Virus record (IMG/VR): IMGVR_UViG_3300045988_056128 | Coordinates: 1-5,063 of that record | From: a virus | DNA length: 5,063 nucleotides | Strand: one strand, 5' to 3' | Shown here: in pieces, positions 1 through 5,063 of the stretch | How positions within the stretch are numbered: the stretch's first letter is position 1 | How the letters are laid out: every line of letters starts with the position of its first letter | The notes under the pieces: generated by a model | Told to the model about the DNA's origin: nothing | The model's input: only the letters and a program-made list of their open reading frames with translations | Database searches by the model: none | Program-made: the position numbers and the translations under genes

Positions 1-263
1 CCGCTAAGGTTAAATTAACTGATAAGCAACGTGAACAAATTGAATCTGATTTGAAAGACCCTAAAAAACTTATGGATAAACAATTTTGGAAACAAGTTTT
101 TCATTCTAAAGATGAGAAGTTTAAGTTGCTCCGTGCTTCTTATGAGCGTGGCCTTTCCAATGATATATATTTTAATTTCTATGCTAATAGTCAAGGTTCC
201 GGCTTACAGGATGCTAATGACTTGGCTACTATTGGTTCTCGCCTTAAATATCTTTTTAAGTGA
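1..263 (+). CDS. VP2 minor capsid / DNA pilot protein, C-terminal part. It continues from 4339..5008 because the genome is circular; the full ORF is about 310 aa.
   Basis: Frame-3 ORF ends at TGA 261-263 and runs off the 5' edge of the window. It is in frame with the ORF running off the 3' edge (4339..5063) once the 55-nt terminal duplication is collapsed (5009=1). The sequence is Ala/Asn/Thr/Lys-rich and coiled-coil-like, as expected for a Microviridae pilot protein. Confidence 0.8.
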   Translation, partial: AKVKLTDKQREQIESDLKDPKKLMDKQFWKQVFHSKDEKFKLLRASYERGLSNDIYFNFYANSQGSGLQDANDLATIGSRLKYLFK

Positions 264-272
264 GGTGATATT

Positions 273-353
273 ATGAATAAATGGTTTAGCGCTCTTTGTG
301 TCGCTATTGGTGCGGCCGCTACTTATCTTAGCCAATTTATTTTCGGGAAATGA
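273..353 (+). CDS. Hypothetical 26-aa hydrophobic single-TM peptide, MNKWFSALCVAIGAAATYLSQFIFGK.
   Basis: ATG 273 lies 4 nt after a perfect SD, GAGGTGAT (262-269), which overlaps the VP2 stop TGA. The peptide ends at TGA 351-353, which is embedded in the next identical SD. It has an uninterrupted hydrophobic core of about 20 residues. The ORF is not in the track because it is shorter than the track cutoff. Confidence 0.4.
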   Translation: MNKWFSALCVAIGAAATYLSQFIFGK

Positions 354-362
354 GGTGATTTT

Positions 363-479
363 ATGAAACGTCGTAAGATGACTCGTAAAGGTTCCAAGCG
401 TCTTTTCACTGCAACCGCTGATAAAACTAAATCTATTAACACTGCTCCGCCGCCAATGCGTGGCGGTATCCGGTTGTAA
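363..479 (+). CDS. Small, highly basic DNA-binding protein of 38 aa, analogous to phiX174 J and gokushovirus ORF8: MKRRKMTRKGSKRLFTATADKTKSINTAPPPMRGGIRL.
   Basis: ATG 363 lies 4 nt after SD GAGGTGAT (352-359). Twelve of the 38 residues are K or R and only one is acidic. The stop TAA (477-479) overlaps the ATG of the Rep gene as TAATG. The size matches the J and ORF8 class of DNA-condensing proteins in Microviridae. Confidence 0.6.
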   Translation: MKRRKMTRKGSKRLFTATADKTKSINTAPPPMRGGIRL

Positions 480-1417
480 TGGTTTGTTACCATCCTATAA
501 CTGCGTATCAGTTGCGCCAATGTAAACCTAACGGCAAGAAAGCTATAGTTTTTGGCGCACCGCCTACGCAACCTTTTGACGTTATCAATCTTCCTTGTGG
601 TCAGTGTATTGGTTGCCGTTTAGAGCGTTCTCGTCAATGGGCCGTGCGCTGTATGCATGAAGCTAGCTTGCATCCGTGCAATAGTTTCCTTACATTAACT
701 TATGATGATGAACATATCCGCTGGTCTCCTATTACCGGCGAACAGACACTCTATAAGAGAGATTTGCAGTTGTTTATGAAACGTTTGCGGAAATATTTGG
801 AACCTATTAAAGTTCGGTTTTTTGCGTGTGGTGAATATGGTGACAATACTTATCGGCCTCATTATCATCTTATTCTTTTTGGTTATGACTTTAGGTCAGA
901 CCGACGATTGTATAAGTTGTCTAATGCAGGTTTCCCCTATTATATTAGTGATATTCTTAATAAGCTATGGACTCATGGTTACTGTCTTGTGGCTGATGTT
1001 ACATTTGACTCATGCGCCTATGTTGCTCGTTACGTAACGAAAAAACTTAACGGCGAAGCCGGGAGATTAAAGTACGAAGGCATTCAGCCGGAATTTGTTA
1101 ATATGAGCCGCCGTCCCGGTATTGGTGCTGATTGGTTTGCGAAATATGCCGGTGATGTATATCCATATGACCGGGTAATAATTGTTGATAACGATAAGGT
1201 CCGGAAATTACGGCCACCGAAATATTATGATAAGCTTTATGATGCTATTAACCACGACGAAATGGAGCTTATCAAGGAAAAACGTGTAGAAAATGCTAAA
1301 CTACATGAGCAGGAAATATATACTCCCGGTCGCTTGGAAGCTAAAGAAAAATTTAAGTTTGCTCAAATTAAGAGCTTAGAAAGAGGTAAAACAGATGAAA
1401 CTTTACAGTGTATATGA
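479..1417 (+). CDS. Rolling-circle replication initiator protein (VP4, gene A-like), 312 aa.
   Basis: All three RCR motifs are present: FLTLTY (motif 1), HYHLILF (HUH motif 2) and YVARYVTKK (motif 3, with two catalytic Tyr as in phiX174 A). The N-terminus has the LPCGQCIGCRLERSRQWAVRCMHE Cys cluster typical of Microviridae VP4. The ORF is translationally coupled to the upstream ORF. Confidence 0.92.
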   Translation: MVCYHPITAYQLRQCKPNGKKAIVFGAPPTQPFDVINLPCGQCIGCRLERSRQWAVRCMHEASLHPCNSFLTLTYDDEHIRWSPITGEQTLYKRDLQLFMKRLRKYLEPIKVRFFACGEYGDNTYRPHYHLILFGYDFRSDRRLYKLSNAGFPYYISDILNKLWTHGYCLVADVTFDSCAYVARYVTKKLNGEAGRLKYEGIQPEFVNMSRRPGIGADWFAKYAGDVYPYDRVIIVDNDKVRKLRPPKYYDKLYDAINHDEMELIKEKRVENAKLHEQEIYTPGRLEAKEKFKFAQIKSLERGKTDETLQCI

Positions 1418-1646
1418 TAAAAAATCTATGATTTACGGTCAAATTATGACTTGTCAGGATGAGATTCAAGCCAAGAGATTATTTGAACGTGCTGTCAATG
1501 ATGACGACACTATGTTGTTCCACTATCCGGAAGATTTTGTACTTGTTGAAATTTGTGATTTTGATGAGCATACCGGTAATATTACTACTATGCCTATGCC
1601 TAAACAGATTTTGGAAGCACAAGCATGTTTTCCAATTGAAAAATAA
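1395..1646 (+). CDS. Small non-structural protein of 83 aa, VP5-like, with a putative role in ssDNA synthesis or packaging.
   Basis: A good SD, AAGAGGT (1381-1387), sits 7 nt before ATG 1395. The ORF overlaps the Rep 3' end by 23 nt. Its size, its position immediately after Rep and its MKLYSVYDKK... N-terminus match gokushovirus VP5-type proteins. The family assignment comes from memory and has not been searched. Confidence 0.55.
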   Translation: MKLYSVYDKKSMIYGQIMTCQDEIQAKRLFERAVNDDDTMLFHYPEDFVLVEICDFDEHTGNITTMPMPKQILEAQACFPIEK

Positions 1647-1676
1647 GTGCAATACTCGTTTTGCACTTACTTTTTT
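1645..1676 (+). terminator. Weak candidate intrinsic terminator or attenuator.
   Basis: An 8-bp stem aagtgcaa (1645-1652) / ttgcactt (1661-1668) with an 8-nt loop is followed by ac and then TTTTTT (1671-1676). The stem is AT-rich, so readthrough into VP3 is likely. Confidence 0.3.
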
Positions 1677-1715
1677 CAATTCGCCGCCGGCAGGCACTGA
1701 AAGGAGTTACACTTT

Positions 1716-2186
1716 ATGAGATTTAAAACTATTTTTGATACCTATCAAGAAAAACAAGGTATTATTTTCAAGGAACCCACTATGACAGTACAGAGTGAAA
1801 AAGATAACTGTGACATTAATGTTATCATGAACCGCTATGCTACATGCGGTACGCCGCTTCCTTATCGTACTGACGGCGTTCAGCCTGTTTATGCTGATGT
1901 TTCTGAACTTGGCGATTATATGGAGAACTTCCAGCGTTGTAAGCAAGCTGAAGAAATGTTTAATGCTTTGCCGTCTGCGCTTAGAAAAGAGCTTGACAAT
2001 AACCCTGCTAATCTGATACCCTTTATTCAGGACAAGCAGAATGAAAGTAGGTGTATCGAATATGGACTTATTAATAAGCCAATTGTGGAAGCTCCTAAAG
2101 CTCCTGTTGTTGTTAATCCTAATCCCGCTAATCCTGTTTCTAATAATACGCCCAATCCTATCGTACATACAGATAGTGATGCTTAA
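1716..2186 (+). CDS. Internal scaffolding protein (VP3), 156 aa.
   Basis: SD AAGGAG (1701-1706) sits 9 nt before the ATG. Conserved gokushovirus VP3 signatures are present: QSEKDNCDINVIMNRY and LPSALRKELDNNPANLIPF. Confidence 0.8.
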   Translation: MRFKTIFDTYQEKQGIIFKEPTMTVQSEKDNCDINVIMNRYATCGTPLPYRTDGVQPVYADVSELGDYMENFQRCKQAEEMFNALPSALRKELDNNPANLIPFIQDKQNESRCIEYGLINKPIVEAPKAPVVVNPNPANPVSNNTPNPIVHTDSDA

Positions 2187-2199
2187 TAGCTGATTTTAA

Positions 2200-2224
2200 G
2201 GCCGCCGTTTGGCGGTCTTTTTTT
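2200..2224 (+). terminator. Rho-independent terminator.
   Basis: A GC-rich 7-bp stem ggccgcc (2200-2206) / ggcggtc (2211-2217), including one G-U pair, has a gttt loop and is followed by a run of 7 T (2218-2224). It starts 14 nt after the VP3 stop. Confidence 0.7.
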
Positions 2225-2246
2225 ATTGCGAACTTCCGCCGAGGGT

Positions 2247-2283
2247 GTGGGAACAGTTGCCCTCTTGATGTAACTGTTCCCAC
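2247..2283. other. Perfect 12-bp hairpin: gtgggaacagtt / aactgttcccac, with 13-nt loop gccctcttgatgt.
   Basis: Exact reverse-complement arms were read directly from the sequence. The hairpin is in the only long non-coding region. The loop contains CTTGAT. Confidence 0.7.
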
Positions 2284-2287
2284 TGAC

Positions 2288-2312
2288 ACCAATCGTTAAA
2301 CTGTCGATTGGT
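2288..2312. other. Second hairpin: accaatcg / cgattggt, 8-bp stem with 9-nt loop.
   Basis: Exact inverted repeat starting 5 nt after hairpin 1. Confidence 0.6.
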
Positions 2313-2316
2313 TCAC

Positions 2317-2340
2317 GAACCTTTTCCCCGTCAAAGGTTC
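2317..2340. other. Third hairpin: gaaccttt / aaaggttc, 8-bp stem with 8-nt loop tccccgtc.
   Basis: Exact inverted repeat starting 5 nt after hairpin 2. Confidence 0.6.
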
Positions 2341-2385
2341 ATAAAAATACGGCCTTTCCGTTTAAATATTTTTTCGTTCCGGTAG

Positions 2386-2414
2386 TTGATACTATGTTAA
2401 ATTTCTGTTAGAAT
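2386..2414 (+). promoter_or_regulatory. Sigma70-type promoter: -35 TTGATA (2386-2391), 17-nt spacer, extended -10 TGtTAGAAT (2406-2414). An AT-rich UP-like tract lies upstream at 2361-2376.
   Basis: Five of six matches to each consensus hexamer at the optimal 17-bp spacing, plus the TGn extended -10 motif. It sits in the only intergenic region, downstream of the terminator and upstream of the ORF52/VP1 block. The predicted TSS is at about 2421. Confidence 0.5.
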
Positions 2415-2487
2415 ATCTATGAGAGGTAAATATATCATGCCTCTTATATGGCGTAATGTTATATACAAGCAAGAAAGGAGTCAAAAA

Positions 2488-2646
2488 ATGGTAATGTCTG
2501 ATTTTGACCGCTTTGTCATTAGGCATGGATTGATGCCCACTTACAATCCGGATACTCTTATTTGGGTTCATGGTTCTTATTGTGATGTTCCTGCTGAATA
2601 TTCAGCACGTGTTTTCTCGAAAGGTGGTGAATTTGTGAATGAGTAG
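2488..2646 (+). CDS. Hypothetical protein of 52 aa, MVMSDFDRFVIRHGLMPTYNPDTLIWVHGSYCDVPAEYSARVFSKGGEFVNE, with no recognised family.
   Basis: A strong SD, AAAGGAG (2474-2480), sits 7 nt before ATG 2488. This is the first ORF downstream of the predicted promoter and it overlaps the VP1 start by 8 nt. The track ORF 2419..2646 is the same frame with an upstream ATG that would lie at the predicted TSS and has no SD. Confidence 0.4.
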   Translation: MVMSDFDRFVIRHGLMPTYNPDTLIWVHGSYCDVPAEYSARVFSKGGEFVNE

Positions 2647-4234
2647 ACATTCAGTACAACATCTGTTTTCTCAGGTGCCTACTGCTCAAATTCCTCGTTC
2701 TAAGTTCAATCGCTCTCATGGTTTAAAGACTACGTTTGATAGCGGTTATCTAGTACCAATCTTTGTAGATGAGGTTCTTCCCGGTGATACGTTCTCTATG
2801 GACTGTACGCTGTTTGCTCGTGTTGCTACACTGATTAGCCCTATCATGGATAATATGTACATGGACACTTTTTGGTTCTTCGTGCCGGAACGTTTGTTGT
2901 TTGACCACTTCCAAGCAATGTGCGGTGAACAGGATAATCCTACTGATTCTACTGATTATCTCTTTCCTACTGTGAAATCTCCAACAGGTACAGGCTTTGA
3001 AGTTGGTTCCATTGCTGATTACTTTGGATTGCCAACAGGTATCCCGAATTTAGAAGTCAGAGCAGAGCCGTTCCGTGCTTACAATCTCATCTATAATGAA
3101 TGGTTTCGTGACGAAAATCTTCAAGAGTCTTTGCCTTTTACTAAAGCAGATTCAGACCAATACTCTAACTATAAGTTAGTTAGACGTGGCAAACGTCATG
3201 ACTACTTTACTTCTGCCTTACCTTGGCCGCAAAAAGGCCCCGGTGTAGAGTTGCCCTTTGGCGGTACTGCTTCGCTTACAGGTGAGATTTTCCAAAATCT
3301 TTATTCCGGCGATATTCGCGGTCGTCAGAATCAGGGTGATGATAGTTGGCTTGCTAATGTTCTTTTAACTAGTGCTGGTTATGCTGGTTCTGGTGATGAT
3401 GATAGTTTTGCTGGTGGTACTCCTTACAAACTTAGTATGGATTTGTCTAAGGCTAAAGTCGATTTAACATCTGCTACGTCTATCACTATCAATCAGTTCC
3501 GTGAGGCTTTTCAGATTCAACGCTGGTATGAGCGTGCTGCTCGTGGTGGTACTCGTTACACAGAAATAATCAGAAGTTTCTTCGGTGTAGTTTCTCCTGA
3601 CGCTCGTCTTCAACGTCCGGAATATCTTGGCGGTTCCTCTAATCGTATTGATGTTAATGTCATTCCGCAGACATCTGGTACTACTGATGTTTCTCCGCAG
3701 GCTAATTTATCTGCTTTTGCTGTTGCTACCAATGGTAGAGGCAATGGATTTAGCAAGTCTTTCACCGAGCATGGTTGGATTATTGGTCTCGTCAATGTCA
3801 GAGCTGATTTGACCTATCAACAAGGCATTAATAGGATGTGGACACGTTCTACTAAGTTCGATATGTATTGGCCGACATTTGCTTTTTTAGGTGAGCAGGC
3901 TGTGTTAAACAAGGAAATATTCGCCCAAGGTAATGAAGAGGATGATGGCGTTTTTGGTTATCAGGAACGCTATGCCGAATACAGGTATTCACCTAGTCAA
4001 GTTACCGGTAGATTCCGTTCTACTTATGCTCAGTCTTTGGATTCTTGGCATTTAGCTCAAAAATTCGATAATTTGCCTAAGCTCAACCCGGAATTCATTG
4101 TTGATAATCCGCCGATTGATAGAATTGTTGCTGTTCCGTCTGAACCTCAATTCCTTCTTGATGCGTGGTTTAATTTAAATTGCGTTCGTCCGATGCCGGT
4201 CTATGGTGTCCCCGGTCTTATGGACCATTTCTAA
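2639..4234 (+). CDS. Major capsid protein (VP1, F-protein family), 531 aa.
   Basis: The N-terminal RSKFNRSHGLKTTFDSGYLVPIFVDEVLPGDTF signature is the hallmark of Microviridae and gokushovirus major capsid proteins. The length is typical. SD AAGGTGGTGA (2621-2630) sits upstream of the ATG. Confidence 0.95.
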   Translation: MSRHSVQHLFSQVPTAQIPRSKFNRSHGLKTTFDSGYLVPIFVDEVLPGDTFSMDCTLFARVATLISPIMDNMYMDTFWFFVPERLLFDHFQAMCGEQDNPTDSTDYLFPTVKSPTGTGFEVGSIADYFGLPTGIPNLEVRAEPFRAYNLIYNEWFRDENLQESLPFTKADSDQYSNYKLVRRGKRHDYFTSALPWPQKGPGVELPFGGTASLTGEIFQNLYSGDIRGRQNQGDDSWLANVLLTSAGYAGSGDDDSFAGGTPYKLSMDLSKAKVDLTSATSITINQFREAFQIQRWYERAARGGTRYTEIIRSFFGVVSPDARLQRPEYLGGSSNRIDVNVIPQTSGTTDVSPQANLSAFAVATNGRGNGFSKSFTEHGWIIGLVNVRADLTYQQGINRMWTRSTKFDMYWPTFAFLGEQAVLNKEIFAQGNEEDDGVFGYQERYAEYRYSPSQVTGRFRSTYAQSLDSWHLAQKFDNLPKLNPEFIVDNPPIDRIVAVPSEPQFLLDAWFNLNCVRPMPVYGVPGLMDHF

Positions 4235-4248
4235 GAGAGGTGAATATT

Positions 4249-4329
4249 TTGAATGACTTACAAGTTTCAACTATTGCAATCGTATCTTTGTGTATTATTG
4301 TTGTCTTACGTACTTTTGGTCTGATTTGA
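4249..4329 (+). CDS. Hypothetical small hydrophobic peptide between VP1 and VP2. With a TTG start it reads (M)NDLQVSTIAIVSLCIIVVLRTFGLI, 26 aa. The alternative ATG 4253..4324 in the next frame gives MTYKFQLLQSYLCVLLLSYVLLV.
   Basis: A perfect SD, GAGGTGA (4237-4243), lies immediately after the VP1 stop. In the otherwise gapless genome a 104-nt gap separates VP1 from VP2. With the TTG start, the stop TGA 4327-4329 is embedded in the SD of VP2, the same architecture as at 261-363. Start codon and frame are uncertain. Confidence 0.3.
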   Translation: MNDLQVSTIAIVSLCIIVVLRTFGLI

Positions 4330-4338
4330 GGTGTTACC

Positions 4339-5063
4339 ATGGGTTTATGGTCTGCTATCCGTGGCGATGTTTTTGGTAGCCTTGCTGGCGGTCTTATCGG
4401 TTCTGCTTTTGGCGGCAATAGTGCCAAAAAGCAAGCCGCCCTCCAGCGTCAAAATTGGGCATATCAACAGCAAAATGCCCATCAGTTTGAAGTTGGCGAC
4501 TTAAAGGCCGCTGGTCTTAATCCTATTCTTTCTGCTACTAATAGCCAAATTGCCGGCATGGGTTCCGCCCCTTCTACTTCTGATAATGGTGTTGGAGCTG
4601 GCGTTACTAATAGTATTACCGCCGCTCTTACTCGTCAGGCTAATGTAGAAATTGAAAAAACTAAAGCTGATATTGCTTTGATTGAAGCTAAGGCCAATGC
4701 TACCAATGCTAGAACTAATGCTATTACTGCTGGTATACATGGTGATGATATATCTAAGGCTAATGAGCGTTATGATGCTGATACTGCAAATATTAAATCT
4801 GATACTCGCTTGAAAAATGTTACTGCTGATTATACTTCCGCTAAACAATCTAATGAAGCCAAACTTACACAGGCTGAATTTGAGCGTATTCAGAATGATA
4901 TTCGTATTGCTAATGAGAAGTTGCCCTATGAGATTGATAATATTGTTGCTAATAGTCAAAATGCTCGTGCTACTGCTAGCTATATGTTATCTATGGTTAA
5001 TCTGAATGCCGCTAAGGTTAAATTAACTGATAAGCAACGTGAACAAATTGAATCTGATTTGAA
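4339..5063 (+). CDS. VP2 minor capsid / DNA pilot protein, N-terminal part. It runs off the window end and continues at 1..263.
   Basis: ATG 4339 lies 5 nt after TGAGGTG (4327-4333). The N-terminus is Gly-rich and hydrophobic, MGLWSAIRGDVFGSLAGGLIGSAFGG, followed by QNWAYQQQNAHQFEVGDLKAAGLNPILS, which is typical of gokushovirus VP2. There is no in-frame stop to the end of the window. Confidence 0.85.
   Translation, partial: MGLWSAIRGDVFGSLAGGLIGSAFGGNSAKKQAALQRQNWAYQQQNAHQFEVGDLKAAGLNPILSATNSQIAGMGSAPSTSDNGVGAGVTNSITAALTRQANVEIEKTKADIALIEAKANATNARTNAITAGIHGDDISKANERYDADTANIKSDTRLKNVTADYTSAKQSNEAKLTQAEFERIQNDIRIANEKLPYEIDNIVANSQNARATASYMLSMVNLNAAKVKLTDKQREQIESDL
5009..5063. repeat. 55-nt exact terminal duplication of 1..55. 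This is an artefact of linearising a circular genome, whose unit length is 5008 nt.
   Basis: Direct comparison: ccgctaaggttaaattaactgataagcaacgtgaacaaattgaatctgatttgaa occurs at both ends of the window. Confidence 0.9.

Follow-up and report, generated by a model that had tools for sequence, protein, structure and literature searches.

We analysed a 5,063-nt stretch of viral DNA (IMG/VR record IMGVR_UViG_3300045988_056128, positions 1–5,063; hereafter the window) and describe a conserved hairpin that is probably the plus-strand rolling-circle origin of a gokushovirus. The window holds a complete circular genome of 5008 nt, bases 1–55 recurring at 5009–5063, with all genes on the + strand. The element, at 2247–2290, comprises the first of three consecutive non-coding hairpins (hairpin 1) and the adjacent block TGACACC. 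We read it as an origin, on comparative sequence evidence, because its register, the rank of the phiX174 origin in a matrix search and the motifs of the Rep protein link it to the origin of phiX174. A preliminary description of the window had put the three hairpins forward as a candidate replication origin; the proposal holds, by way of the gokushovirus-wide presence of hairpin 1 and its phiX174-like site. The hairpins and the conserved blocks are as follows.

2247–2283, + strand: hairpin 1, a perfect 12-bp inverted repeat in which GTGGGAACAGTT (2247–2258) pairs with AACTGTTCCCAC (2272–2283) around the 13-nt loop GCCCTCTTGATGT (2259–2271)
2264–2273, + strand: near-invariant block CTTGATGTAA, the 3′ part of the hairpin-1 loop and the first two stem bases, with columns invariant or more than 90% conserved
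2284–2290, + strand: second block, TGACACC, conserved columns in an alignment of 51 copies
2288–2312, + strand: hairpin 2, a perfect 8-bp stem (ACCAATCG, 2288–2295, with CGATTGGT, 2305–2312) and a 9-nt loop, beginning within TGACACC
2317–2340, + strand: hairpin 3, a perfect 8-bp stem (GAACCTTT, 2317–2324, with AAAGGTTC, 2333–2340) and an 8-nt loop

Three hairpins in the non-coding region

An inverted-repeat search recovered the three perfect hairpins, with stems of 12, 8 and 8 bp, where the preliminary description had placed them, and the CTTGAT core noted there in the hairpin-1 loop is present at 2264–2269. The unpaired gaps between the hairpins are 4 nt (TGAC and TCAC), not 5 nt as had been reported. 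Folded as single-stranded DNA, 2241–2346 forms precisely these three hairpins at −26.4 kcal/mol, against a mean of −10.8 kcal/mol for shuffled sequences (z = −6.55; none of 200 shuffles matched the fold energy). The complementary strand gives an equally stable fold. Elsewhere in the genome, perfect inverted repeats of at least 8 bp with short loops are few, and none are similarly clustered. Microviridae package the coding strand, so the structures on the + strand are those of the virion DNA. A switch point in GC skew, suggested earlier as a check, was not seen in the window, and the measure is uninformative for a 5-kb rolling-circle genome. Pairing of the GAGGG flank (2241–2245) with CCCTC in the loop was also considered, and relatives gave it no support.

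Hairpin 1 is conserved across gokushoviruses

In a whole-genome search, 2241–2296 matched at 92–98% identity in gokushoviruses where nothing else aligns, from sources that include sea squirt gut, lemurs, pigs, humans and a plant; over this and the next search together, the hairpin-1 matches range from 90 to 98%. A more sensitive search with the non-coding region found the hairpin-1 segment in 110 records and hairpins 2 and 3 only in the nine closest. Conservation in related genomes, which had been proposed as a check on all three hairpins, is therefore gokushovirus-wide for hairpin 1 and confined to close relatives for the other two. More than 120 IMG/VR contigs, mostly 4–5 kb long and of the same architecture, contain a 14-mer covering loop and 3′ arm.

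For an unbiased sample, 80 contigs were picked solely by similarity to the window Rep (41–96% identity), which avoids selecting on the element itself. A covariance model of hairpin 1, with which the window copy scores 66 bits, matched 73 of these contigs, the best score always falling on the Rep strand, and a broader second model added one more (74 of 80). The six contigs without a match are all truncated, one of them ending within the hairpin loop, so that every one of the 74 untruncated contigs is positive. Contigs ending in or just before the hairpin region include L187 (3′ end, inside the loop), L135, L138, L177 and L193; the hairpin structure may break assemblies or sequencing reads.

The element extends to better-known phages and to more distant lineages. 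With the second model phiMH2K is matched at E = 4.5e-5. An Escherichia coli gokushovirus prophage carries a copy scoring 60.5 bits between VP3 and VP1 (L249, 4486–4533; C41 chromosome, next to hipBA), and 7 of 5426 complete E. coli genomes match a 32-nt consensus of the element. In this prophage GGTGTCA follows TGACACC at a distance of about 40 nt. Nine distant microviruses, with Rep identity down to 24%, gave six matches in a non-coding gap, one strong (E = 1.3e-6) and five weak (E = 0.014–0.17). In two further chlamydiaphages compensatory stem changes surround a constant ACTTGAT loop. A search of viral contigs for relatives of the Chp2 Rep returned only two, both chlamydiaphages.

Position and strand are likewise consistent. 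A regular-expression screen placed the element on the VP1/VP4 strand in 142 of 143 genome-sized loci; depending on gene order it lies just upstream of VP4 (92 genomes) or of VP1 (49 genomes). Some copies carry local rearrangements. In L139 (4864–4923) a tandem 12-nt repeat, ATGTAACTGTTC, begins exactly after CTTG, at the predicted nick, and L019 has a tandem 8-nt repeat, GTAACTGT, within the element. The 8.5-kb contig L023 contains two differing copies, at 849–895 and 4968–5016, about 4.1 kb apart, and may be a head-to-tail join of two related genomes.

A covarying stem between constant blocks

We aligned 51 diverse copies with MAFFT, and the alignment was therefore not fitted to structure. 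Compensatory double changes occur at all 12 stem pairs. Cells are paired in 87.5% of cases, compared with 34–40% when the partners are slid, and the covariation score is 0.60 against 0.16 in shuffles (none of 500 as high). Within the inner eight pairs, G-T pairs and single-sided changes are nearly absent, which fits a DNA helix, possibly forming on both strands, better than an RNA helix.

Sequence is conserved elsewhere. Beyond the near-invariant block, which takes in the 3′ part of the loop, TGACAC(C) sits two bases past the stem in the aligned copies and is a candidate Rep binding site. The spacing is fixed: counting the C of CTTG as 1, TGAC occupies 21–24, so that TGACAC lies 20 nt downstream. 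SpV4, phiMH2K and Dulem virus 250 keep this distance exactly, and Chp1 and Chp2 differ from it by a single base. Neither the sequence nor the length of the loop's 5′ part is constant. A nick motif held in the loop, with pairing rather than sequence conserved in the stem, is the general pattern of hairpin-loop rolling-circle origins.

These data also bear on a G4-type complementary-strand origin, an idea raised in the preliminary description, in which primase acting on hairpins coated with single-stranded DNA-binding protein would start at the CTG at 2283–2285, and the loop CTTGAT would be a coincidence. The layout is similar to that of G4, with three stable, consecutive hairpins on the packaged strand in a non-coding gap, and the CTG is indeed there, touching the 3′ base of hairpin 1. 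In G4 the hairpins occupy 3893–3938, 3946–3965 and 3972–3992, with the CTG at 3996–3998 and an annotated primer at 3970–3997; the G4 CTG thus lies 3 nt past the last hairpin, whereas that of the window falls between hairpins 1 and 2. Only 20 of the 51 copies have a C directly ahead of TGAC, G being commoner. The CTG is therefore not conserved, and for hairpin 1 the idea fails on this ground. The sequences are dissimilar as well, BLAST of the non-coding region against G4 and phiX174 giving chance 8–11-mers only, and beyond the close clade hairpins 2 and 3 are missing while hairpin 1 persists. The loop motif, in turn, is common to phages of Chlamydia, Spiroplasma, Bdellovibrio, E. coli, and gut and marine hosts, which fits a phage-encoded reader better than host primases, and it corresponds to the site at which the homologous enzyme of phiX174 has been mapped to cut. 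We consider it very unlikely that hairpin 1 belongs to a G4-type origin.

Relation to the phiX174 origin

The database record of phiX174 places the viral-strand origin at 4306, in the sequence CAACTTG/ATATTAATAACACTATAGACCAC (the slash marks the cut here and below). Protein A cuts between G4305 and A4306 of this 30-nt origin by way of Tyr343 and Tyr347, as restated in a recent preprint. The window element shares the cleavage core CTTG/AT on the coding strand (reading CTTGATG, not CTTGATA), a GAC-containing block at an equal distance from CTTGAT, and a total length of about 30 nt. The initiators belong to one family, with an HUH motif and two tyrosines in the arrangement YxxxY: the window Rep has HYHLI at residues 128–132, and its YVARYVTKK (Tyr181, Tyr185) aligns with YVAKYVNKK (Tyr343, Tyr347) of phiX174 A. 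When the 10,772 positions of phiX174 were scored with a matrix built from gokushovirus copies only, the true origin came 7th on all columns and 3rd on the high-information columns.

The two origins differ in place and in form. In contrast to that of phiX174, the window element is intergenic and outside the Rep gene (upstream of VP1 or VP4 in 141 genomes), and its middle 10 nt are the 3′ arm of a covarying stem instead of an unpaired AT-rich spacer. That the stem occupies the positions of the AT-rich spacer suggests two ways to expose one cleavage site, by melting or by cruciform extrusion. Dulem virus 250 (L247, 3944–3972; CTACTTGATATTATATGTAGGAGTGACAC / CTTGATATTATATGTAGGAGTGACAC) combines a phiX174-like AT-rich middle (CTTGATATTATATG) with a weak 4-bp stem and TGACAC at the family spacing, and is a possible intermediate between the two types. 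We infer that the element corresponds to the 30-nt origin of phiX174, with a base-paired stem in place of the AT-rich spacer and a location between genes. We also lean towards the broader view that a single ancient plus-strand origin is common to gokushoviruses and several microvirus lineages close to them, and that it is the phiX174 origin in another form: a cleavage motif held in a loop, a covarying hairpin and TGACAC at a rigid distance, outside the Rep gene.

The preliminary description had offered the hairpin-1 loop as the Rep nick site as an alternative. This assignment has strong comparative support in the near-invariant CTTGATGTAA, the covariation of the stem, the subfamily-wide presence of the element and its likeness to phiX174 in sequence and spacing; the Rep cut is predicted between G2267 and A2268. 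Cruciform extrusion of the 12-bp inverted repeat, in the supercoiled double-stranded replicative form, would expose the loop motif CTTG/ATGT as single-stranded DNA, and the TGACAC block 20 nt downstream would position Rep (VP4). Tyr181 or Tyr185 would cut the coding strand at the predicted site, Rep remaining on the 5′ end while the 3′ OH is extended by a host polymerase. After one round, the regenerated hairpin on the displaced strand would present the site again, and the second tyrosine would cut and rejoin the strand, releasing a circular plus strand for packaging.

Several points weigh against a plus-strand origin at hairpin 1, or against its kinship with that of phiX174. The nick position is based on analogy with phiX174, and cleavage is only predicted. 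In the comparison with phiX174 the conserved 30-mer CAACTTGATATTAATAACACTATAGACCAC is matched at only 16 of 30 positions ungapped, the rank test for the phiX174 origin gives p of about 3e-4 to 7e-4 and no stronger, and neither phiX174 nor G4 has a hairpin here or a match to the structure model. The top-ranked matches of the second model in SpV4 (E = 0.12), Chp1 (E = 0.3) and Chp2 (E = 0.56), all on the coding strand in the gap after VP3, are individually weak; in Chp1 and Chp2 the site does not stand out under a sequence-only matrix, and structure is needed to find it. In three of the distant microviruses (24–28% Rep identity) the model found no copy. Two genomes, L088 (512–560) and L014 (MG945307, 1999–2045; outside the screen of 143 loci), have the element inverted relative to all large genes and carry no second copy; these are either assembly artefacts or phages that nick and package the non-coding strand. 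Lastly, such a hairpin, conserved on the plus strand, could in principle act at a different step, for example in packaging or in complementary-strand initiation, either in place of plus-strand initiation or in addition to it.

Taken further, this last point becomes a reading in which hairpin 1 either signals to a different phage protein or in a different step (packaging, or a switch to single-strand synthesis through VP5 or the small basic protein) or acts as an RNA structure in the transcript, and is not the Rep cleavage site. A conserved coding-strand hairpin with a constant loop would suit such a signal, and the phiX174 origin also serves packaging. Against this reading, hairpin 1 lies past a terminator, its inner stem is nearly without G-T pairs, which is unusual for an RNA helix, and an Rfam scan of the whole window returned nothing relevant and no match for hairpin 1. 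The constant loop also contains the cleavage motif known from this enzyme family, at the phiX174 spacing from GAC. We regard the reading as very improbable.

Comparison with other origins, and significance

The nick core CTTGAT recurs in the double-strand origin of pC194-family Rep_1 plasmids (pC194 sequence TCTTATCTTGATAATAAGG), where the nick is described at CTTGATA (PMC10378824). These plasmids also use an HUH initiator, and they differ in Rep family and flanking sequence. Hairpin-loop origins, namely the nonanucleotide stem-loops of CRESS-DNA viruses and the origins of pT181 and pMV158, likewise combine a nick motif in the loop, a hairpin of conserved structure and a nearby binding site (here putative), although their sequences and Rep lineages are unrelated. 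In contrast to these, the nick motif of the gokushovirus element is on the 3′ side of the loop, and the candidate binding block is rigidly spaced and positioned 3′ of the stem. Among microviruses, conserved intergenic hairpins have been predicted in reekeekee- and roodoodoo-microviruses and a replication role proposed, a complementary-strand origin being favoured (PMC9865509). Compensatory changes are seen in their stems as well, and the loop is identical in one clade, but the clades and sequences are others, and the authors drew no link to a Rep cleavage motif. A full-text literature search, whose scope did not extend to older subscription papers on Chp, SpV4 and phiMH2K, found no described gokushovirus origin, hairpin or motif.

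In gut and aquatic viromes, few single-stranded DNA phages are as common as gokushoviruses. If our reading is true, the origin would be mapped for the most abundant group of single-stranded DNA phages, and a connection would be drawn, with Dulem virus 250 as an intermediate, between the unstructured origin of phiX174 and the hairpin origins found in plasmids and CRESS-DNA viruses. One initiator family would be seen to expose its cleavage site through either an AT-rich stretch or a cruciform, and the two genomes with inverted copies would package the non-coding strand. An element of about 45 nt with a predicted cut makes the question testable, as E. coli gokushovirus prophages carry it and E. 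coli gokushoviruses can be grown in laboratory E. coli (PMC7062461). The element would also give circular genomes a natural zero coordinate and a strand call, serve as a sensitive non-coding marker for microviruses and their prophages, and provide a starting point for origin-bearing plasmids or phagemids.

Hairpins 2 and 3

Hairpins 2 and 3 are clade-specific structural hairpins, probably accessory. Close relatives with a genome identity of about 85% share 90–95% identity in the block from the terminator preceding hairpin 1 to hairpin 3. The following ~60 nt are missing from four relatives of pig origin, and in these the conserved sequence ends precisely at 2340, the end of hairpin 3; the block therefore behaves as a unit. 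At least four sequence versions of hairpin 2 in relatives all keep the hairpin, including a swap of GTCA/TGAC to GACA/TGTC and two unrelated stems. In 15 of 15 relatives hairpin 3 is 100% paired; its stem shows a single compensatory change (GAACTTTT/AAAAGTTC), and its loop varies. Hairpin 3 is absent from L147, which has just one hairpin of this kind. After hairpin 2, the sequence TCACGAACC (2313–2321) loosely echoes the TGACACC that follows hairpin 1, and CACGAACC is conserved in the clade.

The idea that the element universally includes a downstream hairpin was rejected, as the mean fold energy after TGACAC across the family (−4.0 kcal/mol) barely differs from that of genome controls (−3.5 kcal/mol). 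An inverted GACAC follows the element in 16% of copies and 6% of controls.

Our guess, held with low confidence, is that hairpins 2 and 3 help to start the complementary strand on the incoming single-stranded genome. This would refine the plus-origin reading of hairpin 1 by adding an adjoining complementary-strand origin, entered by primosome, primase or RNA polymerase, as in filamentous phages and rolling-circle plasmids. The maintenance of stems through compensatory changes while loops vary, and the elevated identity of the block with its sharp end at 2340, are in keeping with such a site, which every microvirus needs (PMC9865509, PMC5714925). The two hairpins, however, show no similarity to known single-strand initiation sites; nor is a downstream hairpin general in the family, and L147 has only one. 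We treat the refinement as tentative and somewhat doubtful.

Layout of the genome and of the non-coding region

The closest GenBank records are gokushoviruses from monkey and pig faeces, at about 85–87% identity, and the gene order is that of E. coli gokushovirus prophages (PMC7062461). Genes and predicted signals of the window are as follows.

363–479, + strand: 38-amino-acid basic protein
479–1417, + strand: VP4/Rep, HUH endonuclease (Pfam REP_ORF2-G2P, 8e-21)
1395–1646, + strand: VP5
1716–2186, + strand: VP3, scaffold protein
2187 to ~2488: non-coding stretch
2198–2225, + strand: terminator-like hairpin AAGGCCGCC/GGCGGTCTT with a T run, from a consensus scan (which lists 2198–2219), closing the VP4-VP5-VP3 block
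2375–2402, + strand: dif-like Xer site CGTTCCGGTAG TTGATA CTATGTTAAAT, in an 11-6-11 layout, its centre doubling as the −35 of the predicted promoter
2386–2414, + strand: promoter-like TTGATA-17-TAGAAT with TG before the −10 (extended −10), from a consensus scan, upstream of the small open reading frame and VP1
2489–2646, + strand: small open reading frame, 52 amino acids from an ATG at 2489 with AAAGGAG ahead, overlapping the VP1 start
2639–4234, + strand: VP1, capsid protein
spanning the circle junction, + strand: VP2

The hairpins thus lie between a terminator-like and a promoter-like sequence, as the preliminary description had it. Its claim that this is the sole intergenic region, with the only terminator, does not stand: the 69-nt gap between VP5 and VP3 holds a second terminator-like hairpin with a T run (1644–1669). 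The terminator-like hairpin at 2198–2225 forms the 5′ edge of the conserved non-coding block and is kept in close relatives, with other stem sequence in L027 and L147. The −10 pattern TGnTAnnAT is retained in relatives, including those without dif. The small open reading frame at 2489–2646 keeps its position in relatives, and a Pfam search with it gave no match.

A dif-like site, and a possible host

The XerD arm of the dif-like site matches that of E. coli dif (TTATGTTAAAT) at 10 of 11 positions in the window and 11 of 11 in relatives. Relatives align up to ATGTTAAA and then split into three unrelated continuations. Four close relatives (L236–L239; MG945413, MT135267, MG945179 and MG945676) are without 2341–2402 and keep the terminator and all three hairpins, so the dif-like site is separate from the hairpins.

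The same genomes help to weigh a role for the hairpins as transcription terminators, transcript-stabilising structures or accessory sequences of the Xer site. Such roles would fit a location between two transcription units, beside a terminator and a dif-like site, and a T-rich stretch does follow hairpin 3 in relatives without dif. In the window, however, no T run follows any of the three hairpins and the terminator scan lists none of them; the constant loop and variable stem of hairpin 1 are the reverse of the terminator pattern; and relatives without the dif segment retain all three hairpins. We judge this explanation highly improbable.

Evidence for integration comes from L140 (IMGVR_UViG_3300045988_054327, 30.5 kb), the contig that holds one of the three continuations, in which a relative with 93% Rep identity is integrated at ~2813–7930. 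The left site of this prophage reads ACGTCCGATAA TAAGGA TTATGTTAAAT and the phage site is on the right. A terminase-like gene lies in the flank, and the prophage may adjoin or sit inside another prophage. L003 and L147 have two dif-like sites each. The 28-mer ACGTCCGATAATGTATATTATGTTAAAT occurs within these two contigs and at the start of L135; a 27-mer of it matches 16 species genomes, 11 of them Phascolarctobacterium, and the full 28-mer is found once, exactly, in each of the 16. No microvirus was found within 8 kb of the matching dif site in reference Phascolarctobacterium genomes. Together these observations point to Xer-mediated lysogeny with Phascolarctobacterium as host, which would extend what is known of E. 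coli gokushoviruses (PMC7062461). Temperate and non-temperate variants appear to coexist.

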